Source: a virus
Taxonomy: Duplodnaviria > Caudoviricetes
Length of the DNA stretch: 64,000 nt
Strand: one strand, 5' to 3'
IMG/VR virus record: IMGVR_UViG_3300029305_003192
Shown: positions 2,169 through 63,099 of the stretch, piece by piece
Layout of the letters: every line of letters starts with the position of its first letter
How positions within the stretch are numbered: position 1 is the stretch's first letter
Program-made: the position numbers and the translations under genes
Notes under the pieces: generated by a model
The model's database searches: none
What the model saw: the letters and a program-made list of their open reading frames with translations, nothing else
What the model was told of the DNA's origin: nothing

Positions 2169-4576
2169 TACTTCTTATCCTCCTTCTCCGACACTGTAAT
2201 CATATCCTGATACTGTCCATAGATAGCATCGCGAACACAGCGTACGATGTATGATGGAATCTCAAGGAACTTGAAATCTTCAGAGTTCTTGATATCCTTA
2301 AAGATAGCTGGGTCACCTGGTGTTGCACCGTCTCTGAGAGCACGGGTGTATCTGTCAACCAGGAATACATAGTATTTACGGTTAATCGGCGTATCGATAA
2401 AGGTATAGCCATACACCTTTATGAACTGACGGATATTCGCAATTTCATCTTCTCTTAATGAAAGATTGGTCACGAATTTATATCCGATACCCATAACCTT
2501 AAGACGAGCCTTGAGTGCAAGTACGTTATCGTTAACGTAGTTACTCTTAATCTTAAATGAACCAATATTCATTGGGTCACCTGTAGCACTGATAATCTTA
2601 CCAAGTGCCTTACGTCCAAGTACAGATGTACGTGTCCATACATTATGCTCTGCGAGTACTACTGGAGCAATCTGTGTCTGAAGGTCAGCGATTTCTGAAA
2701 TACATACAGGTGTATTACTATTACATATACGATTCTCCTTCTTATCAGATGACTTAGTAGGTAAACCCGCCTTAGATGTAGTACCAGTTGAACGTGCAGA
2801 GAAGTTCTTGTTGGATGTCTGCTTGAGCAGGAACATGTACTTGTATCCGACAACCATCTTCTTCATGAGAGGTTTCTTCATTCCGAAGATGTTTACATAG
2901 AGCTGGTATGGCTCTACAATATCGGCATAGATCTTATAGAGTTTCTGGAACGCGTCGAATCTGAGCTGAGCTGCAGGAGACTTAATGAAATAGTATCCAT
3001 CTCTCTCAACGGATTCGACAATCTTACGCTTGATTTCCTTATCTTCAACGTATGTGTCACCATCAACTCTTACCCTGAACTGGTGTAAGAATACCTTACA
3101 CTGTTCGGCGTTGATATAGCCAATGAATCTGAGAATTTCGTCCATCTTAGTGTCAACATTATCAAGTGTAGTAATCCACTTACGGTGACATTCGGCAAGG
3201 AAGTTGAGGTCAACTTCATACAACTGGTCGGTATTCTCACGACGGAACGCACCTGTAGCATTGAGCACAATATCAAGTGGTGTACCGTCTTCCATGTAGT
3301 ACATACTTTCATCATCAACGATGTCAATATGTGTGTTATTGAGATTGCTTACATCGATACCGAGGGACTCGACCAGAAGACTTGTGAATGTATCGAATTC
3401 TTCCTTGTCGATTTCCTCGTTAGGACCTCCATCACCGATAACCTTGGAAACTACACCTTTATCACCATAACGTCCTACGAACTTACAACCTTCCTTAGGG
3501 AAGCAGGTTGTTTTTGTCTTGAAGACCAATACGATGTTAGAGAAGGGCTTGTCTCTCATTTTCCATTTCTTCGTTGGGTCATTATATCTATCGAAACGCT
3601 TACGCTGGAATGTGACATTATCTGTGTAGCGAGAACCACTCTGCTTAATCTTAGTAGCAGCTTCGAACACCCTATCAGCGTATGTGCAGCAATATTCATA
3701 GTATTTAATGAGCTGTGCGTTATAAATTGTGTCTGGGATGGGTTCATCCCCATTATAGTACACATCGATGTCATATACTACTGTGCCGAGCTTGGTACAG
3801 TATTTATTGTCAGTATTGCAGATATCATGAACGTTCTTCTCACGGAAGTCATATGTTGCATACATGGAGTTATATCTTCTGGTAGCACAAAGAATCTCAA
3901 CGTCATTGATTACTTCACCTACGTCAGGGAAGGATTTATCTCCATGAATAAAGAGGAGAATATCGTTGTCGTTGATAGATACTGTAGTCTGTCCTACTTC
4001 AACATATCCAAAGTCCTTAAGATATCCGCGACGGATTTTGATACCGTCTTCATATGTCGCTACGTCGTTACTGTATGCGACTAAAGCATTCTTACCAAGA
4101 CGATAGTTCATATGTTCATCATATGATGTAGACTTGAAGAGAATTGGGTCGGTTGTCTTATCGCCAACATTGAGGCTATCCATGCCTTCAGTATTATACT
4201 GATAGCCAAAGCTCTCTGCAATGTATCTAGCCTGCTGCTTCTCAATCATATCATATGTATCAGTCTCAGCGTTGTAGAGAATGAGCATATATACATTATC
4301 GTCTCCGAATTTTTGAATTTTGTCAACTACTTCCCATTCGCCTTTGAGTTCTTTATAGGCGTGAGAGTATTTACCAAATGCACGTTCATGTCCTGTCTGA
4401 ACACGTGCGATGTCTGGATTAAGAAGTGTCACGTACTGCTTCTGGTTCTGAGTAGCCATGAAGAGACGTGAGCCGTTGGAGCCACCTGGGTACAAGATAG
4501 AACTTGGACCATAGCAATGCTCCATATTACTTATGCGGTGATTAACTTCCTCGTATACGCTTTTATCATATCCCAT
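2168..4576 (-). CDS. Phage multisubunit RNA polymerase beta-like subunit, C-terminal half (probably non-virion RNAP)
   Basis: RpoB motifs SRLFMATQNQKQ, TGHE, GKNALVAY, TYEDG, GCKFVGRYGDKGVVS, DGTPLDIVLN, GYKYMFLLKQ, SARSTG. Confidence 0.9.
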   Translation of the reverse strand: MGYDKSVYEEVNHRISNMEHCYGPSSILYPGGSNGSRLFMATQNQKQYVTLLNPDIARVQTGHERAFGKYSHAYKELKGEWEVVDKIQKFGDDNVYMLILYNAETDTYDMIEKQQARYIAESFGYQYNTEGMDSLNVGDKTTDPILFKSTSYDEHMNYRLGKNALVAYSNDVATYEDGIKIRRGYLKDFGYVEVGQTTVSINDNDILLFIHGDKSFPDVGEVINDVEILCATRRYNSMYATYDFREKNVHDICNTDNKYCTKLGTVVYDIDVYYNGDEPIPDTIYNAQLIKYYEYCCTYADRVFEAATKIKQSGSRYTDNVTFQRKRFDRYNDPTKKWKMRDKPFSNIVLVFKTKTTCFPKEGCKFVGRYGDKGVVSKVIGDGGPNEEIDKEEFDTFTSLLVESLGIDVSNLNNTHIDIVDDESMYYMEDGTPLDIVLNATGAFRRENTDQLYEVDLNFLAECHRKWITTLDNVDTKMDEILRFIGYINAEQCKVFLHQFRVRVDGDTYVEDKEIKRKIVESVERDGYYFIKSPAAQLRFDAFQKLYKIYADIVEPYQLYVNIFGMKKPLMKKMVVGYKYMFLLKQTSNKNFSARSTGTTSKAGLPTKSSDKKENRICNSNTPVCISEIADLQTQIAPVVLAEHNVWTRTSVLGRKALGKIISATGDPMNIGSFKIKSNYVNDNVLALKARLKVMGIGYKFVTNLSLREDEIANIRQFIKVYGYTFIDTPINRKYYVFLVDRYTRALRDGATPGDPAIFKDIKNSEDFKFLEIPSYIVRCVRDAIYGQYQDMITVSEKEDKK

Positions 4577-35557: not shown

Positions 35558-36412
35558 ATGGCTTGTGGAGGAGGGTCTTCATCTTCCGGTTGTACCGGTG
35601 CTTGTTCTTCTGATTGCTACTCATGTACCGGGTCATGTTTCGGATGTGTAGGAACGTGTGAGAAAGGTTGTCAAGGCGGATGTGGTGGTACATCATGTAC
35701 GGGATGTACTGGATCTTGTTCGGGTACATGTAATAACACATCCAGTGGTTCTTCAGGATGTTCAGGCTGTACGGGATGTACTGGATGCTCAACGTCATGT
35801 GCAACCGGTTGCGCTTCATATACTTCGTGCTCATGTTCGGGATGTTCCGGTACATGCAGTGGAACTGCATCTGGCAGTACGGCTACACCTACCAGTTGCT
35901 CTGGTACCTGCACCACCACATGCTATTCTGCATGTACTGGTGGTTGTGGCACCACTAATACCGGGGGCGTATTATTTAAGATAAATAAAAACGGATCATG
36001 GTCTACTACAACATCAGGTCTTTGTGCAAACTGCACGGCATCGTGTTCCAGCGGGTGTACCGGTTGTTCTGGCGCATGTTTAGGCTGTACCAATACATGC
36101 AGTTCTGGCTGTACCGCAACATGCGGGGGTTATTGTAGTTCTGCATGTGGTAGATCGTGTATTGCTACTTCAGGAGGCACGTCTAGTGAAGGTTGTACAA
36201 CATCGTCATGTATGAGCGCATGTACTGGTTGTGCTGGAAATTGTACCGGAGGATGTAGCAATAACTGCATCAAAGGATGTTCGAGCACATGTACCGGTGG
36301 ACTTGGCGGATCCAATCTGGCCGCATCGTTGAAAGTTAATAAGGGCGGTACGTGGACCAAGGCATCTGCTATCAGTATAAATCGTAATGGCACATGGTCC
36401 AATAAATCATAA
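35558..36412 (+). CDS. Cys-x-x-x repeat protein inside the tail operon
   Basis: (Cxxx)n of C/S/G/T; KINKNGSW, KVNKGGTW and INRNGTW motifs; AAGGAGG RBS. Confidence 0.85.
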   Translation: MACGGGSSSSGCTGACSSDCYSCTGSCFGCVGTCEKGCQGGCGGTSCTGCTGSCSGTCNNTSSGSSGCSGCTGCTGCSTSCATGCASYTSCSCSGCSGTCSGTASGSTATPTSCSGTCTTTCYSACTGGCGTTNTGGVLFKINKNGSWSTTTSGLCANCTASCSSGCTGCSGACLGCTNTCSSGCTATCGGYCSSACGRSCIATSGGTSSEGCTTSSCMSACTGCAGNCTGGCSNNCIKGCSSTCTGGLGGSNLAASLKVNKGGTWTKASAISINRNGTWSNKS

Positions 36413-45572: not shown

Positions 45573-46280
45573 ATGTATCTTATCTACGATATCGTATGTG
45601 GTGATTGTTTGAATATCTACGATGGCGATATTCGAACGTTCGATAAGTCGTTTAAAACGGGTACTGCTTACTATAATTCGGAATCGTTCGGATATATCGA
45701 GGTTCCAGAAGACTGTGTTGAGAATATAAATACAAACGGACTCGATAATTACAAGGTTATCGATGGTGAAGTAGTATATGAAAAGCCCGCGGCAGAAATT
45801 ATTCCCGATCCAGAGGAACCACCTACTGAGGAGGATAATGTAGTAGTTGGTGAATCTGCTCTCGAATATATGATTACTATGAAATGTGAAGAGATTAATA
45901 ATACATGCCATGCTGCCATCATTGCAGGTATAGACGTGGAAACATCTTATGGTCTCGAGCATTTCAGCCTCACTAAAGATGATCAGTCTAATATTCAGCA
46001 GTGGTATGCAATTGCTAAGACAACTGATGTCAATCTTCCATATCATGCAGATGATGGTGATTGTAAGCCCTATACAAATACCGACATCATTAAGATTGGT
46101 AGTATGGCCACAGCTCATATTACACATCATACAACTTACTGTAACCAGTTAAAGAAGTATGTAAAGTCACTTACATCTGTAAAGGATGTATTCGATGTCG
46201 AATACGGAGTTACTCAGTTAACGGGCGAGTTCCTCGAGAAGTACGAAACTTGTATGGGACTCCTTGCGGTGCTTAATTAA
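45573..46280 (+). CDS. Tail-associated protein, DUF4376-like
   Basis: HFSLTKDDQSNI...YHADDGDCKPY...HTTYCNQLK. Confidence 0.7.
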   Translation: MYLIYDIVCGDCLNIYDGDIRTFDKSFKTGTAYYNSESFGYIEVPEDCVENINTNGLDNYKVIDGEVVYEKPAAEIIPDPEEPPTEEDNVVVGESALEYMITMKCEEINNTCHAAIIAGIDVETSYGLEHFSLTKDDQSNIQQWYAIAKTTDVNLPYHADDGDCKPYTNTDIIKIGSMATAHITHHTTYCNQLKKYVKSLTSVKDVFDVEYGVTQLTGEFLEKYETCMGLLAVLN

Positions 46281-50986: not shown

Positions 50987-51424
50987 TCATATCAATTTGA
51001 TATCTTTCATGGGTTCTCCAAAGAAATAATGCCGTACCAAATTATCAATCACTACTGCGACCATGCCAAGGACCATCCAAGCCAGCGAAAAATAGAGGCA
51101 TATTTGGCCGTCAACATTAAACGGTAATTCTGAGTAGTCCCAGATGTCCATTCCTAGCTTAAGATTAAGTATACATCCCGCATAGTATTCCAACAGCGTG
51201 ATTATTATAGAGGCAAGTGGTGCCTGAACCATTAACGGTAAATCTTCGGTTGTCAACTCATCGATGATACCAATTAATATCAAAGATATTCCGCCGAGCA
51301 CTCCCATAGTCCAATGGGTAAATCCTCGATACAGAATTTCAATCGTCATGTAAACCGCAGCACCTACAGCAAAAATAACACAGTATTTTACTATATTGTA
51401 TAACCAACGTTTATTTTTACGCAT
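50987..51424 (-). CDS. Four-TM membrane protein (DUF1113/CmpB-like; possible holin)
   Basis: IEILYRGFTHWTM, LEYYAG, IWDYSELPFNVDGQICLYFS.W; hydrophobic helices. Confidence 0.7.
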   Translation of the reverse strand: MRKNKRWLYNIVKYCVIFAVGAAVYMTIEILYRGFTHWTMGVLGGISLILIGIIDELTTEDLPLMVQAPLASIIITLLEYYAGCILNLKLGMDIWDYSELPFNVDGQICLYFSLAWMVLGMVAVVIDNLVRHYFFGEPMKDIKLI

Positions 51425-52085
51425 CTTCATTCACCTCCTCTTCATCCACATCATCATATTCAACCTCAGGTGCGGAATCGAATGTTATGGTAAATTCCGA
51501 GCGGGCATTTATGTTAGTATTACCAACAATCACGATATCCATTTTGTTAACAGTACCTATCGGGAAGTCCAGGTACTGCACGCCCGTAAACGGATCACCC
51601 ATATCAATATCCTCGGAACCCAGAGGAATACTAACTACTATATTATCGTCAATGTAAATATTGGCTACCGAACCTTCTGAATACGGGTCCTTTATATGCA
51701 CATGAATATGATAAATTGATATATCTTCGAGAGTTTGCTTAATATAGAAATACTTCTCGATACCTTTATCGTCACAATCACGTTCATATTCGAATCTGGT
51801 TGCAACGGATGTATTGAAACAGATAATTTCGTGATTATCATCATGCATCTGACGCTCGTAATCATATACAAATACGCCACCGCCAGCTTCGGTAGACAGG
51901 TCTGAATTAAAGTTAACATAGTCTGGGATATCGATAAACGTGTCGTTATTCTTAACCATGGTATTGAATATACTATCTGGTATAATCTCAGTAAATGATC
52001 TGGTCACAAGTCCTCGTTTAGTGAACGATAATTGTTTAGTGACCCGAAGTTTACTTATCAGATCATCGGTGATATATTCTCGCAT
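51417..52085 (-). CDS. Hypothetical protein
   Basis: Start at ATG 52085 (AAGGAGG RBS). Confidence 0.7.
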   Translation of the reverse strand: MREYITDDLISKLRVTKQLSFTKRGLVTRSFTEIIPDSIFNTMVKNNDTFIDIPDYVNFNSDLSTEAGGGVFVYDYERQMHDDNHEIICFNTSVATRFEYERDCDDKGIEKYFYIKQTLEDISIYHIHVHIKDPYSEGSVANIYIDDNIVVSIPLGSEDIDMGDPFTGVQYLDFPIGTVNKMDIVIVGNTNINARSEFTITFDSAPEVEYDDVDEEEVNEDA

Positions 52086-52155: not shown

Positions 52156-54117
52156 TTATAAATTACGAACCGTACCGTCGGCACCTACGAACTCCCAGTC
52201 ACGTGCAACCTTACCATCAGGATTACATATAACCGGTTTACCTATGTCAAGACATGCCTGTTTATATGCATTGTATTCTGGTGTGTCAACTGCAACTTCG
52301 TATGCTTCCACATCCTTAAGATGTTCTGGTCCGAACGATTCGAGATCCTTAAGCATATCAAGCTCATCATGGTCGATAATTTCAAGAGCCCATTCATCTG
52401 GTACCCAAATCTTAAATCTGAGGAACGGCGCATACTTACGGAAGCCTTTATTCCAGAAGTATGCATTAGCGAGCGCTCTCGCCTTATGCATAATACAGAT
52501 ATATGTCGCACGCTTATCAACCGTACCAAATACCTGATAGTTATATGCAGAGCACCAGCTACAACCGGAAGCAATTGGACAGTTAAAGCATTCGTCAGTG
52601 GACTGCGAACGTCTCGTTACACATCGCATACACTTAATGATATCCTTTTCCTTATCCGTTGGAAGGAGACCATCATATACGTTACCAATGATAACAGGTT
52701 CTCTTTCATCTCCAAGGGAGCTTTCCATATATCTGATACATGGATAAAGATCGCCCTTATAGTCGCAAGAGAGCATTGAACCGGTACCACCGCACCAGTT
52801 ATTATTTTCCTCTGGACTCATCGGACAGAAATTGGTATCCTCAAAGATAGAGAAATAGATCTTATCGAAGAGATCCTTCTCGATGATATAGTCAGCCAAC
52901 TGCTTCAGCTGATTATAGAGTATATTTGCATAATGAGCATCCCAGCCTTCTTCATATACGCAATTGAGGAAGATTTCCTCATAACCAAGAGCGATAAGGT
53001 TCTGAGTAGCCACAAATACTTTGTCGACATTACCTGGAGCGATTGTCATCTTACTTCCCATATGACCGTGGTGGAATTCCTTAAAGTGCTTAACACCAGC
53101 GATTGCGATATCGTAACTACCGCTACCGTCTGGGAAAATACGGCACGCGTCGTGGAGTTCCTTATTACCATCGATAGAGATGGAGAATGAGAGATGATAC
53201 TTATTCTTGGTGATATACTCCTGGAACTTCGGATCGAAGTAAAGTACACCATTAGAGCAGATAGAAATCATAAACTTATCTCTCCACGGGTGGTCGAGTT
53301 CAATCATTCTATCGTAAAGATAGTCAGTTACCTTGTCGATGAGGTCGATTTCGAGGAGTGGTTCACCACCAATAAATTCAACGATGAGTCCCTCACTGAT
53401 TTTTGTATTAACATAGTCATTTTCTCTATCATCTTCGAGAAGCATATCAATATATCTCTTAGCGATATCAAAAGACATACGGTGTGTCTGCTTGTTAATC
53501 TGATAACAGTTGTGTACACCAATATCGTTTGCAAGATATGTGTGGGTTGATGTACCGATATTATATACATCAATCATTCTTTGATTATATTTAATGGCTG
53601 AAACGCCTCTCCAGTTAAACTCGCCAGTATGTGTATCAAACATATACAGCAAACATCCTGGATTCTCGTCATCAGTCATATATTTTCTGAGTTCATCAGC
53701 CTCTACCCAGTGACCATAATCATCATCCTTACCCTTCATATAAACGGAGTGGTTTGGAGTAATCTGAAGGACAGTCTGGTCATCCATAACAATTGACATG
53801 GTTACGGCCTGACGCTGGAAGAGCTGTTCTACCTTGGCAGTTTCAAGTTCGCCAGTAGCTTCGTTAAATGCAATAATTTCATCGCCAACCTGAATATCTC
53901 TGATTGGCTTACTGGACTTATCTACCATTGTAATGTGAGTATTTCCACTCACACAGTAAGTACAACGAAGATTGCACGCGTCAGTTACCTGAAGCGTGCA
54001 AGTTCTTGTTAAACCGTCATGGTAGGAATCGTCCGCCGATGGTGCTCGGTCTCGACCATAAAGTCGTGCGACCTTATCCTGATAATTTTCAGTTATCTTG
54101 TACTTACGACGAAACAT
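52156..54117 (-). CDS. Radical SAM/SPASM peptide maturase, CXXX-repeat target class, intein-containing
   Basis: CNLRCTY[intein]CYQ, FIGGEPLL, SNG, SISIDG, GSY; SPASM WCGG...YPC...CxxCxxxxxCxxC...C. Confidence 0.9.
   Translation of the reverse strand: MFRRKYKITENYQDKVARLYGRDRAPSADDSYHDGLTRTCTLQVTDACNLRCTYCVSGNTHITMVDKSSKPIRDIQVGDEIIAFNEATGELETAKVEQLFQRQAVTMSIVMDDQTVLQITPNHSVYMKGKDDDYGHWVEADELRKYMTDDENPGCLLYMFDTHTGEFNWRGVSAIKYNQRMIDVYNIGTSTHTYLANDIGVHNCYQINKQTHRMSFDIAKRYIDMLLEDDRENDYVNTKISEGLIVEFIGGEPLLEIDLIDKVTDYLYDRMIELDHPWRDKFMISICSNGVLYFDPKFQEYITKNKYHLSFSISIDGNKELHDACRIFPDGSGSYDIAIAGVKHFKEFHHGHMGSKMTIAPGNVDKVFVATQNLIALGYEEIFLNCVYEEGWDAHYANILYNQLKQLADYIIEKDLFDKIYFSIFEDTNFCPMSPEENNNWCGGTGSMLSCDYKGDLYPCIRYMESSLGDEREPVIIGNVYDGLLPTDKEKDIIKCMRCVTRRSQSTDECFNCPIASGCSWCSAYNYQVFGTVDKRATYICIMHKARALANAYFWNKGFRKYAPFLRFKIWVPDEWALEIIDHDELDMLKDLESFGPEHLKDVEAYEVAVDTPEYNAYKQACLDIGKPVICNPDGKVARDWEFVGADGTVRNL
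53509..53955 (-). mobile_element. Mini-intein (149 aa, no homing endonuclease) in the rSAM gene
   Basis: Block A CVSGNTHI, block B TPNH, block F/G VYNIGT...YLANDIGVHN followed by Cys+1. Confidence 0.9.
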
Positions 54118-54155
54118 AATTTACCTCCATTAGTCTTTCATTATGACAGCAAAAA

Positions 54156-54803
54156 TTACACTGCATATGATACTGTTACCTTCTTAGTATCAAAATCAAG
54201 AGACCAGGAGCGTGTGTTGATAGGAGCGTCTGGTTCGTTTGTATCAAACCATACTCTCACGTATTCGCGGTCGATAATCTTGATATTATTCTGGTAAGCA
54301 TCCTCGACTTCATCATAGATTTTCTGGAGTTCCATGAAGGATGGGTTATCGATCGATGGAGCAATCTGAATTACTCTATCAATGATATCAGCAAGGGCTG
54401 TTCGCTCGATGGAAAGCTCTCTCTGCTTTTCGATGAATTCCGCATCCATATCAATATCAGTTTCAGTCGTCTGACGATTGTCATTACCATTATATGTGAT
54501 GGTAAGTACATGTGACGCGAAGTCGATGACCCAGTTAACAACCGCAGTTTCACCCCACTTTTCGATAGAAAGTGGACGTGCATACTTATCGGAAATTGCT
54601 GTCTTGTCATGGCTGTAGTCAGCTTCGAGCTTGCAAATTTCCTTAAAAATCTTCTGGAGGGTCTCGTTATTGAAGGATGTATCCTTAGAAATAAGACGGG
54701 CCACATCAGTGCATCTTCTGTCAATCATATCAGCACGTCTTTCGAGTGTAATATTTTCGTCTTCCTCGATAGTAATCTTGATCATTGTTTCATTCATATT
54801 CAT
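54156..54803 (-). CDS. CXXX-repeat modification system accessory protein, two tandem domains
   Basis: Two ~100-aa helical units ending NWVIDFASHVLTI and SWSLDFDTKKVTV; adjacent to the rSAM. Confidence 0.7.
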   Translation of the reverse strand: MNMNETMIKITIEEDENITLERRADMIDRRCTDVARLISKDTSFNNETLQKIFKEICKLEADYSHDKTAISDKYARPLSIEKWGETAVVNWVIDFASHVLTITYNGNDNRQTTETDIDMDAEFIEKQRELSIERTALADIIDRVIQIAPSIDNPSFMELQKIYDEVEDAYQNNIKIIDREYVRVWFDTNEPDAPINTRSWSLDFDTKKVTVSYAV

Positions 54804-54855
54804 TATAGATTCCTCCTATAAATTTCATTACCATTCTATTGATATTCGCTATTTT

Positions 54856-55671
54856 TTAAGCATCAAAGCTTTGACTTGTGGCTACCGCCGAGCACGATGT
54901 AGTGCATACAATTGCACATGTACTGTTACATGAGGATGTGCATCCGAAACACTGTAATTTACAGCTTTCTTTACACGTCTGTGTACATTCTTCCATACAT
55001 GTATATCCGCATGATTCTCTACAATCATTATCGCATGTAGTTGCACATGAATTGGTACATGTTGTCGAGCATGTTCCCGCACACGAGCCGCACAAATGAA
55101 TACATCCTGCACCGCACGTAGAACATTGACCCATACAATTATCACCACATGAGTTTTGACAAAATCCAAAGCACGCATTCGAGCATCCCTCACAACCGTC
55201 AGTGCACGCATCACTACATGTCGACGTACAACCTAGACATACGCCGGTGCAGCTATGGAGACACTCGGCACCGCATGCTGATGAACACACGTCTCCACAT
55301 GCACCACTACACTTTCCACGACATGTACTGCCACAGCCGGAACAGCCGGAGCATCCCTGGCATAGATTTTTGCAGGAATCACTACAACCACCAGAGCATC
55401 CTCCGCATCCATCAGTACAGTCACCTCTACATCCTCCAGAACACGAATTGACGCATCCTGTTCCGCATCCGTACTGACAATCTGCAGTACACCCATTACA
55501 GCCACCTTGACATGTTGCTTGGCATCCATAATGACACCCATGACCGCATCCTTCAGTACACAGCGCACTACATACTACCAAACATGAGTTACCACATCCG
55601 CCTGAACATTCGCCAAAATAATCACCATCGGGCTGACCACCTACGATATTACTAGTATTCGGATCTGACAT
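54856..55671 (-). CDS. Cys-x-x-x repeat protein (271 aa)
   Basis: Near-continuous Cxxx/Cxx periodicity; GAGGTGA RBS. Confidence 0.85.
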   Translation of the reverse strand: MSDPNTSNIVGGQPDGDYFGECSGGCGNSCLVVCSALCTEGCGHGCHYGCQATCQGGCNGCTADCQYGCGTGCVNSCSGGCRGDCTDGCGGCSGGCSDSCKNLCQGCSGCSGCGSTCRGKCSGACGDVCSSACGAECLHSCTGVCLGCTSTCSDACTDGCEGCSNACFGFCQNSCGDNCMGQCSTCGAGCIHLCGSCAGTCSTTCTNSCATTCDNDCRESCGYTCMEECTQTCKESCKLQCFGCTSSCNSTCAIVCTTSCSAVATSQSFDA

Positions 55672-55678
55672 ATACTAA

Positions 55679-55981
55679 TCACCTCGTCCCATATGTTTTT
55701 ATAATAATTGCATTCTCACTACCAAAGCACGAGAATGCACAACCACTAGAGCATGAACGACTGCAATCATTTCCGCAAGAAGTTGCACAACTTCCTTCAC
55801 ATTTATTAGCACAGCTAATACATGAGTTCTTACATCCCTGACATGAACCTTTACAGTCTCCAGAGCACTGTGATTCACACGTTCCATAACAACTGCCCAG
55901 ACACGTATTAAAACACGTGTCTGTACAGGTCGTTTCGCATGATGATGCACAGTCAATACACTCGATAGTCAATGGTATCAT
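55679..55981 (-). CDS. Cys-x-x-x repeat protein (100 aa)
   Basis: Continuous Cxxx periodicity; AGGTGA RBS. Confidence 0.8.
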   Translation of the reverse strand: MIPLTIECIDCASSCETTCTDTCFNTCLGSCYGTCESQCSGDCKGSCQGCKNSCISCANKCEGSCATSCGNDCSRSCSSGCAFSCFGSENAIIIKTYGTR

Positions 55982-55989
55982 ATCATCAC

Positions 55990-58896
55990 CTACTCTTTAA
56001 CTAGAAGTAATATTATACTAGCACGTCCATATATGGAGTATGTAGTATCAAAATTAAATGTCATAGTTCTGGATTCGAATTCTGCGACCGATGGAGCGTT
56101 GGTGGCATGGGAATAACCGTCAATTTTAGGAATCATAAACTCATATTCCTCGAATGACGTATCCTTTCTATTCAACGGTACTATCTTAACTATCGATTTT
56201 GAATCCTGGTCATATAATACGACGTTGAAATCTGAATCAGTACGACCATCTGTAGAGTATGAATATGGAATATCTATACCATAATCGTATGATTCGTATA
56301 ACTCAAATCCAGCATTATATACGATACCCGAATAGCTACCATCCGCAAGAATTTCTTTATACTCATTAGCCTCGACGGTAACAGTTACCGTGTCAGTGAG
56401 TCTTGAAGGATAATTCGTAACTCCAGTGATTGCCTCTGGAGCACTCAAAGGTATTGAGCCCGATACATCGGTGATTTGTCCACCATCACGGATTATCAGA
56501 TCACTGGTGACTTTGGCATGTGGATTATTTGCTAGATTACATACGTCGGCTACACCGGGAACTATACTCACATTACCTGATGAATCAAACGAAATATCAA
56601 TTTCGCTACACTCACAGAACGGTACGATTCCAATACCACGTTTTATCATACTTCCTTCATATATAAGTGGTACTGATATAGCTTTCTTTGCCACGTTATC
56701 TATGTGACGCAGTATATTAAATGTTACATTATCACCGTACACTGAAATGATATCACCACTATGTAGAATAGCACTATATGGCAATGCTTCATATGTGTTA
56801 TTAATCTTAAGATTCCAGCTAGAATCATGAGCTCCGCTAATTAGACTACCGCTGGAATTTGTAGCGGTAATAAAGACGATAGTATCGGTGGCTATAGAAA
56901 TATTTTTAGTCTGATTAACCAGGGTCATTGTCTCTTCATCAGCCTCGAAAGATAAACCAACCTCAACCTTGGAGTATAAATACATTTCTCGTATAGTCGA
57001 TGAATACATCTTGGTTACAGAGGGATCCGAATTTGTCATGATGGCAGTAGGTAACGATGAATCGATTGGATAAACCGTACCATCCGTACTGTCGACCCAT
57101 TTTCTTTGGGACGGAATGCCACCATCATATAATGGGAATATATCATCAATGATATCAAATGTAGGGAGCTTAATATCTCCAACCGAAAGGGGTTCCGAAA
57201 CCGCACTATTGTCATGATAAATCGTTGATAGTGTACCATATAAATATCCGTTGTGGTATAATTCAACGGATCTATATTTCGGTGAAGATGCTATGGAACG
57301 TGTAACACCACCACAACCTGTAGTACACCTAGCACCGCATCCACCACATGTATCCTGCAATCCTGTATTACCATAGCAACCTGCAGTACATCCATGGCAT
57401 GTAGTTTTACAGGTTGTGGCACATGAACCATCGCAAGTATTAGTACATCCTGTACATCCCGAGCAACCCGAGGAACATCCACTACATCCAGATGCCTTTC
57501 CGCTACAATCACTTCCGCAATTCATACCGCATGACGTTCCACATGACTCGGAGCAACCCGTACACTGTCCAGAACACTTACCGGAACATACCTCACTACA
57601 CGATGCACACTCATTGATACATCCACCACTGCATGCAGTGGTGCAGTTGTTTTGACATAAACCAGTACATGCCCCACGACAATGTGACACTGGTGCATCA
57701 AATGGTGTATCCCTCAGGAACTTTACGAACTTTAATAGTTTCTCTTTATGATAGATTCCTGGGAGAAGATCCAGCTCTCTAACATGACGTGCATCTGCAA
57801 AATCGCATATATTAAGAAGCATATCTATGACTGGAATACCATGTCCAACGCGAATTATATCGGTACTACTATCTATTATAAACAGCGTATCATCCGGTTC
57901 AGATAAGATAGGACCACAATAATGACGAAATTCTGGTTGATGGAGGTAATCTCCATCTTCATTAAATCCAGATCGTCTATATATTTCATTACGAACTTGA
58001 ACGATAATCTGCTCGAGTTCGCTCGTATTTGTAATTAATGAATTAGAACCTGTACATGTTTCCCAACATGTACCAGTACACGATGTACATTCATCGGTAC
58101 ATCTACCGGCACAATCTTCTTCACATGTACCTGTGCATACAGCGGCGCATGTCATAGCACATTCTTTCGAACATGTACCAGAGCATCCTCCGGTACAACC
58201 GGTACATATGTCCGTGCATGCGCTCATGCACGCACCAGTACATCCACCGGCACAATCATCTGCACACGTTTTTGAGCACGTACTCGTGCACGTTTCATTG
58301 CATGTGTTTTTACAGCTATTATCACATCCGCCAGTACATGTTGTATTACATCCAGTGGAGCAGCCACCAGTACATGCATTTCCACATTTACCAGTGCAGT
58401 TAGTACCACATCCAGTATCACATGTTGATGTACATGTCTCCGAGCATCCTCCGGAACAGCCGGAACACGATGATGTACAGCCGGAACCACATCCCTCACA
58501 ATAACCTGCACAAGCAGTCGAGCAGTTGGATGCACATGACGAACATGACTGTTTACAACTACCATAACATCCAGTACTGCATCCTCCGGAACAGCCGGAA
58601 CAGCCGGAACATGATGATGCACAGCCGGAACCACATCCTGCACATGCAGCTGCCGTATTTGTACAACCATAACATCCATCGCAAGCATTAGTACATGTAC
58701 TATCACATGAACCCGAGCAAGATGTACTACACGTGCCGGTACAAGACATACATCCAGTGGAACATGAACCGCACGTACTTGCACATGTACCATTACAACC
58801 ATATGATGGAGTCTGATGGTTACCAGTACTCGCCATGCTGGTGCAGTCACCACAACCACCGCTGCCAGATCCACTATTGCTTCCTCCACACGACAT
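55990..58896 (-). CDS. Large Cys-repeat protein (968 aa): Cxxx tract, globular insert, Cxxx tract, Cys-poor C-terminal domain
   Basis: Two Cxxx tracts separated by an E..RR...CRGACTGLC domain; ~430-aa beta-rich C-terminus. Confidence 0.85.
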   Translation of the reverse strand: MSCGGSNSGSGSGGCGDCTSMASTGNHQTPSYGCNGTCASTCGSCSTGCMSCTGTCSTSCSGSCDSTCTNACDGCYGCTNTAAACAGCGSGCASSCSGCSGCSGGCSTGCYGSCKQSCSSCASNCSTACAGYCEGCGSGCTSSCSGCSGGCSETCTSTCDTGCGTNCTGKCGNACTGGCSTGCNTTCTGGCDNSCKNTCNETCTSTCSKTCADDCAGGCTGACMSACTDICTGCTGGCSGTCSKECAMTCAAVCTGTCEEDCAGRCTDECTSCTGTCWETCTGSNSLITNTSELEQIIVQVRNEIYRRSGFNEDGDYLHQPEFRHYCGPILSEPDDTLFIIDSSTDIIRVGHGIPVIDMLLNICDFADARHVRELDLLPGIYHKEKLLKFVKFLRDTPFDAPVSHCRGACTGLCQNNCTTACSGGCINECASCSEVCSGKCSGQCTGCSESCGTSCGMNCGSDCSGKASGCSGCSSGCSGCTGCTNTCDGSCATTCKTTCHGCTAGCYGNTGLQDTCGGCGARCTTGCGGVTRSIASSPKYRSVELYHNGYLYGTLSTIYHDNSAVSEPLSVGDIKLPTFDIIDDIFPLYDGGIPSQRKWVDSTDGTVYPIDSSLPTAIMTNSDPSVTKMYSSTIREMYLYSKVEVGLSFEADEETMTLVNQTKNISIATDTIVFITATNSSGSLISGAHDSSWNLKINNTYEALPYSAILHSGDIISVYGDNVTFNILRHIDNVAKKAISVPLIYEGSMIKRGIGIVPFCECSEIDISFDSSGNVSIVPGVADVCNLANNPHAKVTSDLIIRDGGQITDVSGSIPLSAPEAITGVTNYPSRLTDTVTVTVEANEYKEILADGSYSGIVYNAGFELYESYDYGIDIPYSYSTDGRTDSDFNVVLYDQDSKSIVKIVPLNRKDTSFEEYEFMIPKIDGYSHATNAPSVAEFESRTMTFNFDTTYSIYGRASIILLLVKE

Positions 58897-58897
58897 A

Positions 58898-59890
58898 TTA
58901 TGTCACCTCCTCAGAATTCGTTTCGCTTGAAGTGCCTGTAGTGTCAGATGATGCCATTGCTAAACACGAACCAGTACAACCAAGACAACCCGTATTGACG
59001 GTTCTTCCCTCTGCCGTACCGAAGCATTCATCTTTACATCCACCAAAACACGTATTATCGCAGATATCACTACATGAATTCATACATCCCATATGACATC
59101 CATTCATACAGTGGTCACCACATTCATGAACACATTCACCACCGCATGTGGTTACACACATACCGGCACATAACTCACTACATCCGGTACAACCTTTACA
59201 TTTATCGTCGCACCCTGTACATCCGCCGCCACAACCGGAGCATCCGTGACATCCATCACATTCTCCACGACAGCACTCTTTACAGGTGCCACCACATCCG
59301 CCTTTACATTCATCGTGACATCCTTCGTCACATGAATCAGAGCATCCGCCGGTACATCCTGTACATCCTGCACAAGATGTACACATTCCAGTACATACCG
59401 TACCACAGTTTTTCTTACAAGCATCAGTACATGCAGTAGTACATTCACCACCACATTTCTTTATACATCCATTAGTACACGAGTCTCCGCATCCGGCACA
59501 TCCGGAACCACATCCGGAGAAACATTTCGATTTACATGTATTATTACACGTGGTTCCACATCCTGTTTTACATCCACCGGTACATGTTGTTGAGCATGAT
59601 TTAGCAGCAGCTGCAGAAGACTGACAGCTGCTATGACACTCACCGCCACAACCACTACCACACTGTCTGCTACACGAGCCACTACAATCGCTACCGCATG
59701 AGCCACCACATCCAGAACCACATGATCCACCACATGCTCCCTTACCACAGGATCCACAGCCCTGACATCCAGATGAGCATATACTATTACACGATGACTT
59801 ACACTGGCTCGTACATGACTGATTGCACGAACCCGATGTTCTACCGGAACATGATGCCATGCATCCGTTTCCGGAACAATCAACTGCCAT
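58898..59890 (-). CDS. Cys-x-x-x repeat protein (~330 aa)
   Basis: Continuous Cxxx periodicity; ATG 59890 after GAGGTG. Confidence 0.85.
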   Translation of the reverse strand: MAVDCSGNGCMASCSGRTSGSCNQSCTSQCKSSCNSICSSGCQGCGSCGKGACGGSCGSGCGGSCGSDCSGSCSRQCGSGCGGECHSSCQSSAAAAKSCSTTCTGGCKTGCGTTCNNTCKSKCFSGCGSGCAGCGDSCTNGCIKKCGGECTTACTDACKKNCGTVCTGMCTSCAGCTGCTGGCSDSCDEGCHDECKGGCGGTCKECCRGECDGCHGCSGCGGGCTGCDDKCKGCTGCSELCAGMCVTTCGGECVHECGDHCMNGCHMGCMNSCSDICDNTCFGGCKDECFGTAEGRTVNTGCLGCTGSCLAMASSDTTGTSSETNSEEVT

Positions 59891-60089
59891 TTGTTCCACC
59901 TCGCTTTATAGTCGAAGATATTGATTCGTTATTAATGGTCTTTTTTACAATCGTCGGTATCATTACCTTATTATATCTGATTATACCTCTACTGGATGAC
60001 GTAGCGTCGCATGACGCGCCGCAATTATTTTTACATCCGCTTACACATGCGGTACTACATGTAGTACCGCATCCACATTCAATAGCCAT
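59880..60089 (-). CDS. Short Cys-x-x-x repeat protein (69 aa)
   Basis: CGCGTTCSTACVSGCKNNCGASC then a basic tail; fills the operon gap. Confidence 0.65.
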   Translation of the reverse strand: MAIECGCGTTCSTACVSGCKNNCGASCDATSSSRGIIRYNKVMIPTIVKKTINNESISSTIKRGGTNGS

Positions 60090-60099
60090 TTATTCAGCC

Positions 60100-61233
60100 T
60101 CAATTCTTTTTATTACCTTTATCTCCGTTAGTATTTGCGGTATTATGATTATTTCCATTAGGCGAGTATGAATTATTAGCACATGCTGCCGAACAGGTTT
60201 TATTACAACCTCCAGCACATCCTCCCTTACAGGAACCAGTACAACCTGATCCACAACTTGTACTACATCCACTACACTGTCCAGTACATGCAGATCCACA
60301 AGCACGTGTGCATATAGAGGAGCATCCATCACTACACCCAGTAGGGGTTGATGGGCCGCCAGGATTATTTGATGATGATCTACATGTTGATGAGCACGAT
60401 GTCGTACAATTACCGTTACATGATGGAGCCTGGTTAACTGTTGAACTCGTAGCAGTATCTTTACAGCCACCAGTACATGTATCTGTGCATCCTGTACTAG
60501 CACCGCCTGTAGCACTACCAGTACATCCAGCGCATGTACTCGTACACGATTCTTCGCACGAATCATGTTTCTTGGTAGCGAATCCCGTACACGATTTCCA
60601 ACAACCGCCATCACATTTACCGTTACATCCGCCAGTACAACCTGTACCACATCCATTGGTACATTTATTTTCACACTTACCCGTGCACGTGCCACTACAT
60701 CCTTCACACGTACCACCACATCCATTACATGTTGTAGTACAAGCTCCACATGAAGTACATGCTACATTACAGGCAGTTGTACAAGCACCACAACCAGTAC
60801 AACCATTGGTACATTCCTCACTGCAACCGTTACAGGTATTGATACATGTCATCATACATAGACCGGAACATGCAGATCTACATGAGATGGCACCGTTTCT
60901 GTCAGTATTAAGTGGGTTAGAAGTTGCAAGCATATCCTCGCTCTGAAGAAGCTTTATAAATGCGAGAAGTTCATTATATTCGAATGAATCAGGGATAGGG
61001 TCGGCCACTTCAACGAGGATAAGGTCTCCCTTATCACAAATATGAAGTAATGGGTCAATCGTTTTAGCACCCTGCTCCTGCGTAATAACATCATGAGTTC
61101 TTGGCACTACACTGAAATCATAAGCATCTTTAGAGAATTCGGTCATACGGCCATATCCGCCGCGACGCATCATCTCTTGTTTAATTAACGCTTTAAGTTC
61201 TTTCGCCTGGTCAGGCGTTACATGAAGAATCAT
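60100..61233 (-). CDS. Cys-repeat protein with ~105-aa N-terminal leader-like domain
   Basis: ATG 61233 after AAGGAGG; EMMRR...CRSACSGLC then Cxxx tract. Confidence 0.85.
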   Translation of the reverse strand: MILHVTPDQAKELKALIKQEMMRRGGYGRMTEFSKDAYDFSVVPRTHDVITQEQGAKTIDPLLHICDKGDLILVEVADPIPDSFEYNELLAFIKLLQSEDMLATSNPLNTDRNGAISCRSACSGLCMMTCINTCNGCSEECTNGCTGCGACTTACNVACTSCGACTTTCNGCGGTCEGCSGTCTGKCENKCTNGCGTGCTGGCNGKCDGGCWKSCTGFATKKHDSCEESCTSTCAGCTGSATGGASTGCTDTCTGGCKDTATSSTVNQAPSCNGNCTTSCSSTCRSSSNNPGGPSTPTGCSDGCSSICTRACGSACTGQCSGCSTSCGSGCTGSCKGGCAGGCNKTCSAACANNSYSPNGNNHNTANTNGDKGNKKN

Positions 61234-61260
61234 TATAATCCTCCTTCTTATAAAATTAGA

Positions 61261-61288
61261 ACCCAATGCAATTATAATTGCATTGGGT
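61261..61288. terminator. Perfect palindrome/hairpin upstream of the Cys-repeat operon
   Basis: ACCCAATGCAATTATAATTGCATTGGGT. Confidence 0.65.
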
Positions 61289-61317
61289 CCATTTATAATT
61301 ATTTTGTCATTCTAATC

Positions 61318-63099
61318 CTATCCACTAACTTCCGGTGTCGGTGTTATTGATGGAGTACCCATGATAGTTTCATCGGGTTCAGCAGTAATAGGATTGTCCT
61401 TAATATTCTCACCCCAAATAGCATGGATTGGAACCCAAGCTCCATCATAATAAAATTTGAGGACAAACTGAGGTGTCTGAATCCACATCTTCTCAGTATC
61501 GGCTGGAGGTGTTGCTCCGAACACCCAGTTAGCTGCAGGGGCAGCACCGATTGGACGCCACTTCTTATGTGTGGTATCATAATAGTTGAGAGTTGCGGGA
61601 TGATACACGTTTTCAGTATCCTTATTAAGCCATGGTCTTTCCAGGTCATGGATAGACATCCATACATCTTTGGTATAATAAGCCAATGCCGGTGGAATCA
61701 ATCTCTTCCATGTCCCACCGGGATACTTATTAGTTGAACCTGGTGGCGATGGTGGCACTACAATGGCCTCTTCGTAATGTGGGTCATCTACACCATCGGA
61801 TGTTCCCATACAGTGGTACAATTTGAAATTTTGTGTATATGAATTCTTATGATTGGGGTCAGCGATTGGACCGGCGGCTGGTACTTTATACCAAAGCACC
61901 TGATTCTCCACCGGAGGTTCTACGCTCTGCACGAATCCGCCGCCACCTCCGACTGCAACGAACTCATTTACGAATTCGCCCTTATCATCATTATAGACAA
62001 TAGTCTGCTGATTTTCGATTAAGCATTTCCCCTGAGCATCATACGCAATATTTACTGGAACCTCATTGAGGAAATTTGCATTGTCAAATTCAGTCCACAT
62101 GTCATAATAGCTAGGCATCCACTGAGTCGCATAAACACCCCATTCGAGCTTAGGAAGAGCAAAATGAGCAAGCGTGAGTCTGTTTACACCAAATGCGATC
62201 TTAACATATTTAGCGTTAAGATACTCATTGGTAACAGTAACAGATATTCTCTCCCAAGTTTCGGAATTTGGCTGGATTATTTCTTCGTATTTGGAGCCAT
62301 TGATTCTCTGATGATTTGCATCTTCGAATGTGATCTGGATAAATACTGATCCATCCTTCGTGGTATTAGATACAAAAGTGGATGCAGTATATGTCATTCC
62401 ATATATTGCTTCTGTACAATATGCATTGGACTGAGCAACTACTACTGATTCAGTAAGACTTATCAGTTTAGACGCGTCCATCTTAAACGCTGGTCTATCA
62501 CACAGTGTCTTAGATGTATCTCTAGTGGCATAGGCTGCGTGAGTTGTACTCCATGCATCAAAACCACGCACAAGACCTGTATTATCGGCAAGATTAATAT
62601 TACCAATAACAAGATTATCGATGATAGACTTAAGATGTCTACCCATATTAGCAGATAACGCAGCATCCGCTCTTTCAGACTTCAGATGGTCGATAACATC
62701 TACCTTCTGCACACCAAGGTCGATATGCTTCCAGCTATAGTCCTTAGAACCATCTGCAAGGTCAAGATCTCTGTAATAAAGGTGTGCACCAATGTACAGT
62801 CTCTGCCAGTGGTGATTACCTTCATAGGAAACCTGTAAGAAAATTGGAGATACCGAGGTTGTCTTGAAGAGAGTCTGCCAAGGCATCTCAATCTCAACAT
62901 TATCGGGTCCAATATCATAATAGAAGAATATAGTATATTTACCAGGGATAGTAATCTGGAAAAGGTTCTCAGGCATATCCTGAGTCTCACCGATAAGATA
63001 ACATCCTGGGTCAACATTCTCCTGATATGTATTACCAAGAATTCTGCCGACGGCAAGGTCTATCTCGTGACCGGTGTATAAGCTTTTATAAGCACCCAT
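61318..63099 (-). CDS. Tail fibre/baseplate protein with CBM-like domain
   Basis: YKSLYTGHEID N-terminus, DHLKS..DAALSANMG..LK repeat, YTAS...WERISVT...PKLEWG, PP...W...W motifs. Confidence 0.7.
   Translation of the reverse strand: MGAYKSLYTGHEIDLAVGRILGNTYQENVDPGCYLIGETQDMPENLFQITIPGKYTIFFYYDIGPDNVEIEMPWQTLFKTTSVSPIFLQVSYEGNHHWQRLYIGAHLYYRDLDLADGSKDYSWKHIDLGVQKVDVIDHLKSERADAALSANMGRHLKSIIDNLVIGNINLADNTGLVRGFDAWSTTHAAYATRDTSKTLCDRPAFKMDASKLISLTESVVVAQSNAYCTEAIYGMTYTASTFVSNTTKDGSVFIQITFEDANHQRINGSKYEEIIQPNSETWERISVTVTNEYLNAKYVKIAFGVNRLTLAHFALPKLEWGVYATQWMPSYYDMWTEFDNANFLNEVPVNIAYDAQGKCLIENQQTIVYNDDKGEFVNEFVAVGGGGGFVQSVEPPVENQVLWYKVPAAGPIADPNHKNSYTQNFKLYHCMGTSDGVDDPHYEEAIVVPPSPPGSTNKYPGGTWKRLIPPALAYYTKDVWMSIHDLERPWLNKDTENVYHPATLNYYDTTHKKWRPIGAAPAANWVFGATPPADTEKMWIQTPQFVLKFYYDGAWVPIHAIWGENIKDNPITAEPDETIMGTPSITPTPEVSG

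Follow-up and report, generated by a model that had tools for sequence, protein, structure and literature searches.

The window, a 64,000-nucleotide stretch of phage DNA (Caudoviricetes), carries a minus-strand run of eight co-oriented genes with a strong hairpin at each end. Six of them code for proteins built of long cysteine ladders (A to F), and the other two for an accessory protein and a radical SAM (rSAM)/SPASM enzyme. The features of the locus and its surroundings are as follows:

61318..63099, minus strand: upstream tail-fibre-like gene, 593 aa, with tail-protein PHROG matches
61259..61290, minus strand: 14-bp-stem hairpin (terminator-like scan), between the upstream tail-fibre-like gene and ladder gene A
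60100..61233, minus strand: ladder A, 377 aa from the ATG at 61233; the open frame extends to a TTG at 61266
59880..60089, minus strand: ladder B, 69 aa
58898..59899, minus strand: ladder C, 333 aa from a GTG, 330 aa from the ATG at 59890
55990..58896, minus strand: ladder D, 968 aa
55679..55981, minus strand: ladder E, 100 aa
54856..55671, minus strand: ladder F, 271 aa, with a phrog_6085 match
54156..54803, minus strand: accessory protein, 215 aa
52156..54117, minus strand: radical SAM/SPASM maturase precursor, 653 aa, with a TIGR04115 match
53509..53955, minus strand: mini-intein inside the rSAM, 149 aa
52114..52147, no strand assigned: 15-bp-stem palindromic hairpin (terminator-like scan), immediately past the rSAM stop codon
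47404-48804: flanking gene, Laminin_G_3
45573-46280: flanking gene, tail-fibre PHROG match and DUF4376
35558..36412, plus strand: seventh ladder protein, 284 aa with 51 Cys, in an opposite-strand late operon 16 kb away
C1:40129-44352 of the genome, outside the window: further ladder protein, 1406 aa

Between neighbouring ladder genes, the open frames overlap by as much as 20 nt or are separated by up to 10 nt. A strong Shine-Dalgarno (SD) sequence of the GGAGG/GAGGTG type lies 5-9 nt ahead of the ATG of every gene of the run except ladder B, whose SD is the poorest. The ATG at 61233, preceded by the SD sequence AAGGAGGA, is probably the true start of ladder A; a length of 377 aa is also returned by the ENA gene callers. 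The hairpin past the rSAM gene is likely to be the operon terminator. Thus the six tightly packed, co-oriented ladder genes of 69-968 aa and the bounding hairpins noted in the preliminary description are all recovered, the former in the gene calls with SD sequences upstream, the latter in the scan.

Cysteine ladders and their domains

The six ladder proteins contain 324 Cys in total, which make up 10.1-23.2% of their residues versus 0.9% in the accessory protein and 3.4% in the rSAM. The impression that Cys stands at about every fourth residue is borne out by the 318 Cys-to-Cys gaps, 239 of which (75%) are of four residues and 56 (18%) of three, with spacers consisting mainly of G, S and T. 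A DNA artefact can be dismissed as the source of the ladder, since Tandem Repeats Finder detected almost no nucleotide repeats in 54800-61300 and the Cys reading frame continues into conserved domains devoid of the Cys pattern. The ladder genes, with their SD sequences and no tandem repeat at the DNA level, are real genes in the Cys frame. Automatic gene callers often misframe or fragment such genes, so the family is under-represented in databases; in the deposited SEGD1 annotation the ladder genes have apparently been misread likewise.

The proteins differ in architecture. Ladder A begins with a conserved domain of ca. 105 aa (the N-domain), followed by the junction motif C-R-x-A-C-x-G-L-C and ladders with 53 Cys. 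In ladder D (104 Cys), ladder tracts at 34-281 and 406-528 enclose an internal copy of the N-domain (ca. 282-405) and precede a Cys-poor, beta-rich C-terminal domain of ca. 440 aa (530-968), which is kept at 41-44% identity in two homologues of the same architecture. The N-domain is missing from four of the six, among them ladder C (76 Cys, 22.8%); ladder F (63 Cys, 23.2%) is one unbroken ladder, while the seven Cys of ladder B are all N-terminal and its tail is Cys-free. Only ladder E, with 21 Cys, exceeds the cut-off of the short TIGR04114 repeat model (20.7 bits against 20); the other five proteins of the operon fall below it. The genome record holds eight ladder proteins, two beyond those originally listed. 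The late operon with the seventh also carries a tail-fibre-PHROG gene, and the gene for the 1406-aa protein adjoins genes matching "virion structural protein" PHROGs.

The maturase, its intein and the accessory protein

The TIGR04115 model, by which the identity of the enzyme as a CXXX-repeat maturase was to be checked, gives 438.7 bits (cut-off 350) over profile positions 16-359 of 359; judged by this match, the enzyme is a bona fide member of that family. The next-best family is PapB (NF047865; 171.2 bits, cut-off 340 not reached), and SCIFF (99.8 bits) and the anaerobic sulfatase maturase TIGR03942 (E 3e-10) also match. Seven SPASM cysteines, C239, C257, C307, C310, C316, C319 and C338, are invariant in the alignment of relatives.

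The mini-intein lies inside the CxxxCxxC motif, directly ahead of its third Cys. It has Cys1, a T-x-x-H block, a terminal His-Asn and Cys+1, matches the Hint model PF01079 (35.4 bits, cut-off 29.7) and has no endonuclease domain within its 149 aa. Its removal in silico restores CxxxCxxC, and the spliced junction agrees with intein-free homologues; from these motifs and the restored extein, the intein is predicted to be spliceable. A homologous intein in the sister phage contig L004 is placed three residues earlier. Intein-containing rSAMs of the Rv2578c family (NF038136) likewise have a Hint-type mini-intein interrupting the N-terminal cluster-binding region. Nevertheless, they form a different enzyme family, on whose model the rSAM described here scores 42.7 bits (cut-off 700), and its intein differs in sitting exactly ahead of the third motif Cys.

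The accessory protein had been described as duplicated. It is indeed a tandem duplication of a ca. 100-aa helper present in nearly all phage-type loci: in jackhmmer searches, either half finds an ORF of that size between the substrate and rSAM genes of almost all loci (E values of 1e-25 to 1e-35). The TIGR04116 HMM does not match it even at E 10. A profile-profile comparison of the phage accessories with TIGR04116 (hhalign) gives a probability of 92.9% and E 5e-8 over 95 columns, full length, and points to a remote TIGR04116 homologue too diverged for the HMM.

Related loci and gene neighbourhood

Candidate stretches were screened for relatives of the enzyme: 496 of the 542 from viral contigs and 542 of the 599 from prokaryotic genome contigs encode one, which puts the carriers at no fewer than 496 viral and 542 prokaryotic contigs. 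The closest prokaryotic relatives belong to Oscillospiraceae, Lachnospiraceae and other Clostridia. The carrier of the cassette described here is a large phage of gut anaerobes, and the window is an extreme case of its kind, with a duplicated helper, an intein and, in the genome record as a whole, eight ladder proteins.

In phage-type loci a ladder ORF lies immediately upstream of the enzyme gene on the same strand, and in 47 of 49 dereplicated loci the substrate consists of the N-domain followed by a Cys ladder. The N-domain family comprises 680 clusters at 50% identity and has no match among solved folds. The claim that the substrates, unlike the bacterial ones, are protein-sized holds across loci: the median target length is 299 aa in phage-type versus 115 aa in bacterial-type loci. 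A Tat-like signal is found in none of 148 phage-type substrates versus 15 of 27 bacterial-type ones. The bacterial-type enzymes form a single separate clade (100% support), and their loci (L144-L165) contain TIGR04119, a second maturase in the form of a SPASM-only protein or fusion, as well as TIGR04116. In the phage record the best TIGR04119 match reaches 14.3 bits (cut-off 150), and neither a protease at the locus nor a signal peptide on the ladder proteins is present; for the second maturase and the protease this agrees with the absences noticed earlier, which are provisional in a 141-kb record that is 59% complete. A small PF06541 membrane protein is encoded two genes downstream of the cassette, a caveat to these absences.

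L004 has a syntenic counterpart of the gene at 61318-63099, which likewise lies upstream of ladder genes and codes for 753 aa. Linkage to tail genes, noted at the flanks of the locus and to be surveyed in phage genomes at large, is found in both: tail PHROGs at 61318-63099 and a tail-fibre PHROG at 45573-46280 flank the cassette, and across the related loci all named PHROG families among the immediate upstream neighbours are tail fibre, minor tail or tail. The cassette adjoins tail-fibre genes in hundreds of uncultured phages, so the refuting case named in the preliminary description, homologous loci unconnected with tail modules, does not arise. When downstream genes are included, endolysin/amidase and baseplate families also appear. 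The cassette is packed tightly and co-oriented with late genes in unrelated phage types. In ca. 35 related contigs the ladder protein ends, after a conserved junction, in one of two unrelated head domains, and a poly-G run is present at the ladder/head junction.

Proposed function and comparison with known systems

The enzyme family, the accessory protein and the ladder targets are identified, they are conserved, and they are linked to tail-fibre genes. Taken as a whole, the locus is probably best explained as a form of the CXXX-repeat radical SAM maturation system that phages carry. Excision of the mini-intein would restore the CxxxCxxC cluster site of the enzyme. With the tandem TIGR04116-like accessory as helper, the enzyme would then work in the anoxic cytoplasm of the host, where it would covalently modify several late phage proteins along their tracts with a Cys at every fourth position. 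It is likely that the ladder proteins are indeed its targets. The most likely product would be a series of intramolecular Cys thioether cross-links, giving a stapled, reduction-proof rod per tract; this is suggested by analogy, because the PapB and SCIFF maturases are the nearest characterised relatives, and we give thioether chemistry a little less than an even chance. Speaking against the explanation as a whole are Cys at position +4 where PapB uses Asp, the four ladder proteins of six devoid of the N-domain, the absence of TIGR04119, the lack of a direct TIGR04116 HMM match, and the N-domain matching no solved fold.

With no signal peptide, leader protease or transporter, the modified proteins would stay unexported, each with a ladder stalk between an anchor domain and a distal head. 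They would most likely serve as parts of the tail-fibre or host-recognition apparatus, a role suggested by gene position, fusion to large beta-rich domains and the swappable C-terminal heads of relatives. Synteny and this head-domain modularity tip the balance slightly towards the ladder proteins being associated with the virion or tail fibre. The slot between tail-fibre genes upstream and lysis/endolysin genes downstream counts against a place in the virion, as it is also a classic one for non-structural accessory genes, and the proteins could instead be modified in the cytoplasm and released by phage lysis, for instance as a polymer with antimicrobial, adhesive, matrix-forming or anti-defence action. 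The classical RiPP transporter would then be replaced by lysis and no protease would be needed; in addition, the bacterial system, which is either ancestral or sister to the phage one, has exported products bearing Tat-like signals. We nevertheless regard such released cargo as unlikely: ladder tracts are fused to large beta-rich and swappable head domains, ladder genes stand in a late operon with a tail-fibre-PHROG gene and beside virion-structural PHROG genes, the globular domain of ca. 105 aa, conserved in 47 of the 49 loci, does not look like a leader to be discarded, and the co-oriented packing with late genes recurs in unrelated phages.

As to chemistry, the ladders might be metal or iron-sulfur scaffolds (metallothionein- or cluster-chain-like) that the rSAM/SPASM enzyme loads or primes without cross-linking. 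A Cys content of 10-23% with small spacer residues would suit this option, raised already in the preliminary description, and so would the twin-arginine signals of the bacterial homologues, a route of cofactor-bearing proteins. We consider it improbable, as the characterised relatives of the PapB, SCIFF, QhpD and anSME types all change the peptide covalently, none of them is known to load metal, and the retention of an rSAM and helper of its own beside the ladder in hundreds of loci suggests a covalent product. Least probable is another covalent chemistry, for example oxidation that turns Cys into formylglycine or a dehydro residue, epimerisation, or cross-links between chains that polymerise the proteins. 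The TIGR03942 match among SPASM relatives, the ladders' want of a conserved acidic acceptor residue and the several N-domain-free proteins, which could be mutually cross-linked building blocks, would allow it; against it stands thioether formation by the top-scoring characterised relatives, PapB and SCIFF.

On the preferred reading, phages carrying the cassette probably cross-link a particle protein enzymatically, as far as can be judged from sequence. A more specific version, in which the rSAM is a morphogenetic factor of strict-anaerobe phages and thioether rods serve as tail-fibre shafts or decorations with exchangeable receptor-binding heads, is put forward tentatively. Disulfides are unreliable under the reducing conditions of the gut, to which the cassette may be an adaptation. 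The peptides that radical SAM/SPASM maturases are known to make are small and secreted; in the window, an enzyme of this family is associated with proteins of up to ca. 1000 residues, with ca. 100 target cysteines. If it staples the tracts, it would be a highly processive protein-modifying catalyst. Stapling would also be a naturally occurring way of making protein rods that lack disulfides and withstand reduction, of interest to enzymologists and protein engineers. If the structural role is true as well, the rods would constitute a virion building material of a new class, the chemistry would be the first of RiPP type known on viral structural proteins, and assembly of the host-recognition apparatus would include an enzyme-dependent step. 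The CXXX-repeat type of system is already catalogued and biochemically unstudied: its phage variant was not found in the literature searched, nor was virion proteomics, structure or biochemistry for any member. Cultured carriers with candidate prophages, such as Neglectibacter timonensis SN17, Desnuesiella massiliensis, Eubacterium pyruvativorans i6 and Anaerobacterium chartisolvens DSM 27016, and the 100-aa substrate make this system, uncharacterised since its definition, directly testable.

Modular phage receptor-binding and tail-fibre proteins resemble the ladder proteins in gene position, in layout, with a domain conserved at the N-terminus, a long stretch of repeats in the middle and a variable domain at the C-terminus, and, in related contigs, in head swapping with a poly-G run at the junction. 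Homopolymer-tract switching is reported for Campylobacter phages and T-even phages (PMC10877375; bioRxiv 10.1101/2025.10.21.683753). Unlike the known shafts (coiled coil, beta-helix or collagen repeat), the one proposed here would be an enzyme-modified Cys ladder.

The PapB/PapA (freyrasin) and ranthipeptide/SCIFF maturases, the next-best family matches, are also SPASM radical SAM enzymes, and PapA likewise has Cys motifs repeated with a period of a few residues. In PapB a substrate Cys binds the auxiliary cluster, and CXXXD motifs give thioethers (PMC12373016). However, the six CXXXD motifs of PapA are carried by a short peptide with a leader, whereas the ladder tracts have up to 104 Cys, no CXXXD/E acceptor motifs, and neither a cleavable leader nor an RRE-type domain.

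The bacterial CXXX-repeat system, defined by comparative genomics, comprises TIGR04114/04117/04118 targets, the TIGR04115 rSAM, the TIGR04116 accessory and TIGR04119. Common to both are an rSAM of the same family above cut-off, a target with Cys at every fourth residue, adjacent co-oriented genes and a small accessory, probably homologous to judge by profile-profile comparison, which in the window is tandemly duplicated and beyond the reach of the TIGR04116 HMM. The bacterial targets are shorter, while those of the phage reach 968 and 1406 aa; moreover, in the phage system TIGR04119 is absent, the target has its own domain of ca. 105 aa, and the genes are set in a tail-fibre module.

The ladder operon and its products

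The operon consists of eight genes read in one direction, and two further ladder proteins (284 and 1406 aa) are encoded beyond it in the genome record, the 141,310-bp fragment that contains the window.

Features of the ladder system (window coordinates unless marked C1, the contig coordinates of the genome record)
61233-52156, minus: operon of eight co-oriented genes, coding for six Cys-ladder proteins, an accessory protein and a radical SAM enzyme
ATG at 61233, minus: ladder protein A, 377 aa, 53 Cys
minus: ladder protein B, 69 aa, 7 Cys
minus: ladder protein C, 330/333 aa, 76 Cys
minus: ladder protein D, 968 aa, 104 Cys
minus: ladder protein E, 100 aa, 21 Cys
minus: ladder protein F, 271 aa, 63 Cys
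minus: accessory protein, 215 aa, downstream of the ladder genes
minus: radical SAM enzyme, 653 aa, last gene of the operon
35558-36412, plus: 284-aa ladder protein, 51 Cys, on the opposite strand, 16 kb from the maturase
C1:40129-44352 (= L003:6127-10347), minus: 1406-aa ladder protein, outside the window

A strong Shine-Dalgarno sequence of the Gram-positive type lies 5-9 nt upstream of the ATG of every operon gene except B, and the spacing of the ladder genes ranges from a 20-nt overlap of open frames to a 10-nt gap. Cysteine accounts for 10-23% of the residues of the ladder proteins; the distance between successive cysteines is four residues in 239 of the 318 gaps found in the six proteins and three residues in 56, with Gly, Ser, and Thr predominating in the spacers. 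The Cys pattern is maintained at the protein level, since Tandem Repeats Finder detected almost no DNA-level repeats in the ladder genes and the Cys reading frame is continuous with conserved non-Cys domains. The same two properties, together with the Shine-Dalgarno signals, rule out low-complexity DNA or a wrong-frame artefact. Fusion of B and C (69 and 333 aa) into a single frameshifted gene is likewise unsupported, other assemblies calling both separately. The operon is flanked on both sides by hairpins, with stems of 14 and 15 bp, and the neighbouring genes match tail or tail-fibre PHROGs, Laminin_G_3, and DUF4376. The preliminary description of six packed, co-oriented ladder genes followed by an accessory and a radical SAM gene, bounded by hairpins and set among tail genes, is thus confirmed by gene calls, Cys counts, the hairpin scan, and PHROG matches.

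The gene of the 284-aa protein shares a late operon with a tail-fibre PHROG/DUF4376 gene at 45573-46280. The 1406-aa protein carries a Cys ladder at each end, of about 60 and about 370 aa, and its gene adjoins genes matching "virion structural protein" PHROGs; a family search with its central ca. 960 aa matched none. A small membrane protein of the PF06541 family ("putative ABC-transporter type IV", 57.4 bits; 50987-51430, minus) is encoded by the second gene downstream of the maturase, past the terminator hairpin, and its membership in the cassette is unsupported.

Contigs of about 239.6 kb from several samples, among them L166 (JGI 3300018475, Ga0187907_10000022; 239,607 bp), encode a product that matches residues 224-968 of D exactly, which indicates that the phage is a jumbo phage with a full genome of ca. 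240 kb, the genome record being a fragment rated by CheckV as 59% complete. The automatic gene calls of L166 break up the ladder genes or place them in other frames: D is given as 216 + 745 aa, and C and F are each split into two or three. In the deposited record of Salmonella phage SEGD1 (KU726251.1; locus 3167-3803), gp170 and gp169 apparently follow non-Cys frames, and a Cys-repeat ORF of 134 aa (3380-3784) lacks annotation. Annotation of the ladder family is probably incomplete in public records.

Maturase, intein, and accessory protein

The 653-aa enzyme matches TIGR04115, "radical SAM peptide maturase, CXXX-repeat target family", with 438.7 bits against a cut-off of 350, which bears out its earlier assignment to this family of SPASM maturases, and all seven of its SPASM cysteines are invariant across the family alignment. 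Thioether-maturase models (PapB 171 bits, SCIFF, others) score far under their own cut-offs on the enzyme. Residues 55-203 (149 aa; 53509-53955, minus) constitute a Hint-type mini-intein, with Cys as its first residue, a T-x-x-H block, and a terminal His-Asn followed by Cys. Its deletion in silico yields C-N-L-R-C-T-Y-C-Y-Q, matching the intein-free homologues. Among 165 related loci only the window and the sister phage contig L004 carry inteins. That of L004 (142 aa; L004:9566-9991) is homologous to the window intein (33% identity, E 2e-19), and the insertion points are three residues apart in the CxxxCxxC motif, before the third Cys in the window and before the second in L004.

The two halves of the accessory protein align to each other and to small ORFs of other loci. 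Since jackhmmer started from either half retrieves the same ca. 100-aa ORF, located between substrate and enzyme in almost all related loci (E 1e-25 to 1e-35), the accessory protein, described before as duplicated, is indeed a tandem duplication of a ca. 100-aa helper, as are those of the related loci L004 and L104. The TIGR04116 HMM did not match the window accessory, and jackhmmer did not connect the phage accessories with TIGR04116 members directly, save for marginal bridges through the loci L005 and L111. A profile-profile comparison of 93 phage accessories with 20 TIGR04116 proteins gave a full-length alignment with a probability of 92.9% and E 5e-8.

Relatives and substrate architecture

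A search with an alignment of six enzymes gave relatives in 496 of the 542 candidate stretches taken from IMG/VR viral contigs and in 542 of the 599 taken from prokaryotic genome contigs. The closest genomic carriers, with up to 62% identity, belong to Oscillospiraceae, Lachnospiraceae, and other Clostridia, which points to these as the likely host group of the phage. In a quick maximum-likelihood tree the enzymes of the window and L004 are paired (support 99) within a well-supported group holding Neglectibacter and Papillibacter sequences, while those of loci with TIGR04116 and TIGR04119 form a single separate clade (support 100). With rooting at the midpoint only, the tree gives no direction of transfer. 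In bacterial-type loci from Thermoguttaceae, Halanaerobiales, and Clostridium zeae (L152-L159, L164, and L165) a TIGR04115 enzyme is fused to a TIGR04119 domain in a protein of ca. 720 aa. No INPHARED phage matched 24 kb of the window in a megablast search, and isolated phages match the enzyme with 24-26% identity only (Erwinia and Salmonella jumbo phages). In SEGD1, Cys-repeat ORFs lie next to two radical SAM genes; no paper tying them to virion data was found.

A conserved N-domain of ca. 105 aa, found ahead of the ladder in 47 of the 49 dereplicated loci, terminates in the near-invariant junction C-R-G-A-C-T-G-L-C; in a few loci its position is C-terminal. In the window, A carries this domain at its N-terminus and D has a more diverged copy in its interior. 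A full HMMER search gave 680 clusters of this family at 50% identity. The AlphaFold2 model comprises four helices (pLDDT 76.8, pTM 0.73). Foldseek against the PDB retrieved nothing with E <1, a wide VIA-align search no solved fold (best Z 4.6), and a Pfam-A profile search no family; matches in BFVD are uncharacterised gut-phage homologues only, and some homologues carry a precomputed PF27846.1 assignment. Complex prediction for the N-domain (positions 14-140 of A3) and the C-terminal half of the accessory (positions 104-215 of A6) scored 0.19, a value that weighs neither way on binding. Ladder proteins devoid of the N-domain occur in nine dereplicated loci, as in the window, so the domain would not be required in cis for every ladder, and an anchoring or adaptor role fits at least as well as that of a leader.

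The C-terminal domain of D (440 aa, Cys-poor) has a predicted secondary structure that is mainly beta and is kept at 41-44% identity in two homologues of identical architecture; its AlphaFold2 model, built from three sequences only, has a mean pLDDT of 42.6 and an all-beta tendency at most. In about 35 close viral contigs of ca. 58-60 kb (within L027-L077; e.g. L035:7882-9492, L028:7890-8972, L040:134-1183), the N-domain and ladder are followed by a conserved junction, past which lies one of two unrelated head domains, one with several subtypes, or an early stop. The junction contains a poly-G run of 4, 5, 6, or 8 bases; of 15 "short" forms, 11 retain the coding sequence of the head further downstream, out of frame. 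The run length sets the end of the protein: a stop, or read-through into either head. This variation may represent phase variation of a swappable head; it could also be a homopolymer assembly error.

Proposed function and relation to the catalogued system

According to the mechanism we propose, the intein would splice out, and the enzyme and helper would then work on the ladders within the anoxic cytoplasm. That the ladder proteins are modified by the enzyme is likely. By analogy with PapB, in which an auxiliary cluster binds the substrate Cys and six CXXXD motifs give thioethers (PMC12373016), it would make thioether bridges along the ladder tract. Cys occupies position +4 in the ladders, which excludes Asp there as the acceptor and makes the chemistry the weakest link of the mechanism, and the thioether is a tentative assignment with slightly less than an even chance of being right.

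As to the role of the products, the ladder proteins are putative tail-fibre or virion-associated proteins, an assignment to which we give somewhat better than even chances. The beta-rich C-terminal domain predicted for D, the exchangeable heads, and the slippage-prone junction tracts favour the fibre reading; exchangeable distal domains and such tracts are typical of receptor-binding proteins, with precedents in PMC10877375 and bioRxiv 10.1101/2025.10.21.683753. In 50 dereplicated phage-type loci all named PHROGs of the gene directly upstream are tail fibre, minor tail, or tail, so the linkage to tail modules proposed for the window extends to homologous loci. With downstream genes included, endolysin/amidase and baseplate families join. 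It is unlikely that the ladder proteins are cargo set free by lysis. A role of the ladders, rich in Cys as they are, as metal or Fe-S scaffolds is improbable. Some other covalent chemistry is the least probable of these three alternatives.

The CXXX-repeat system type is already catalogued in NCBIfam; of the four components listed for its bacterial form, three would, judged by profile matches, be present in the window. The fourth, a second maturase of the TIGR04119 type, had been reported as missing, and the search of the genome record, 59% complete, agrees with that (best match 14.3 bits, cut-off 150). The ladder ORF, which in phage-type loci has 200-570 aa and lies immediately upstream of the enzyme, has a median length of 299 aa vs 115 aa in bacterial-type loci, and twin-arginine-like signals were found in 15 of 27 bacterial-type targets vs none of 148 phage-type ones. 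A literature search on TIGR04115, CXXX-repeat, and phage radical SAM/SPASM RiPPs found nothing on function or on a phage version. The window stands out by its scale, the genome record encoding eight ladder proteins, the largest of 968 and 1406 aa. An intein and a duplicated helper are further features, and the full genome of the phage measures ca. 240 kb.
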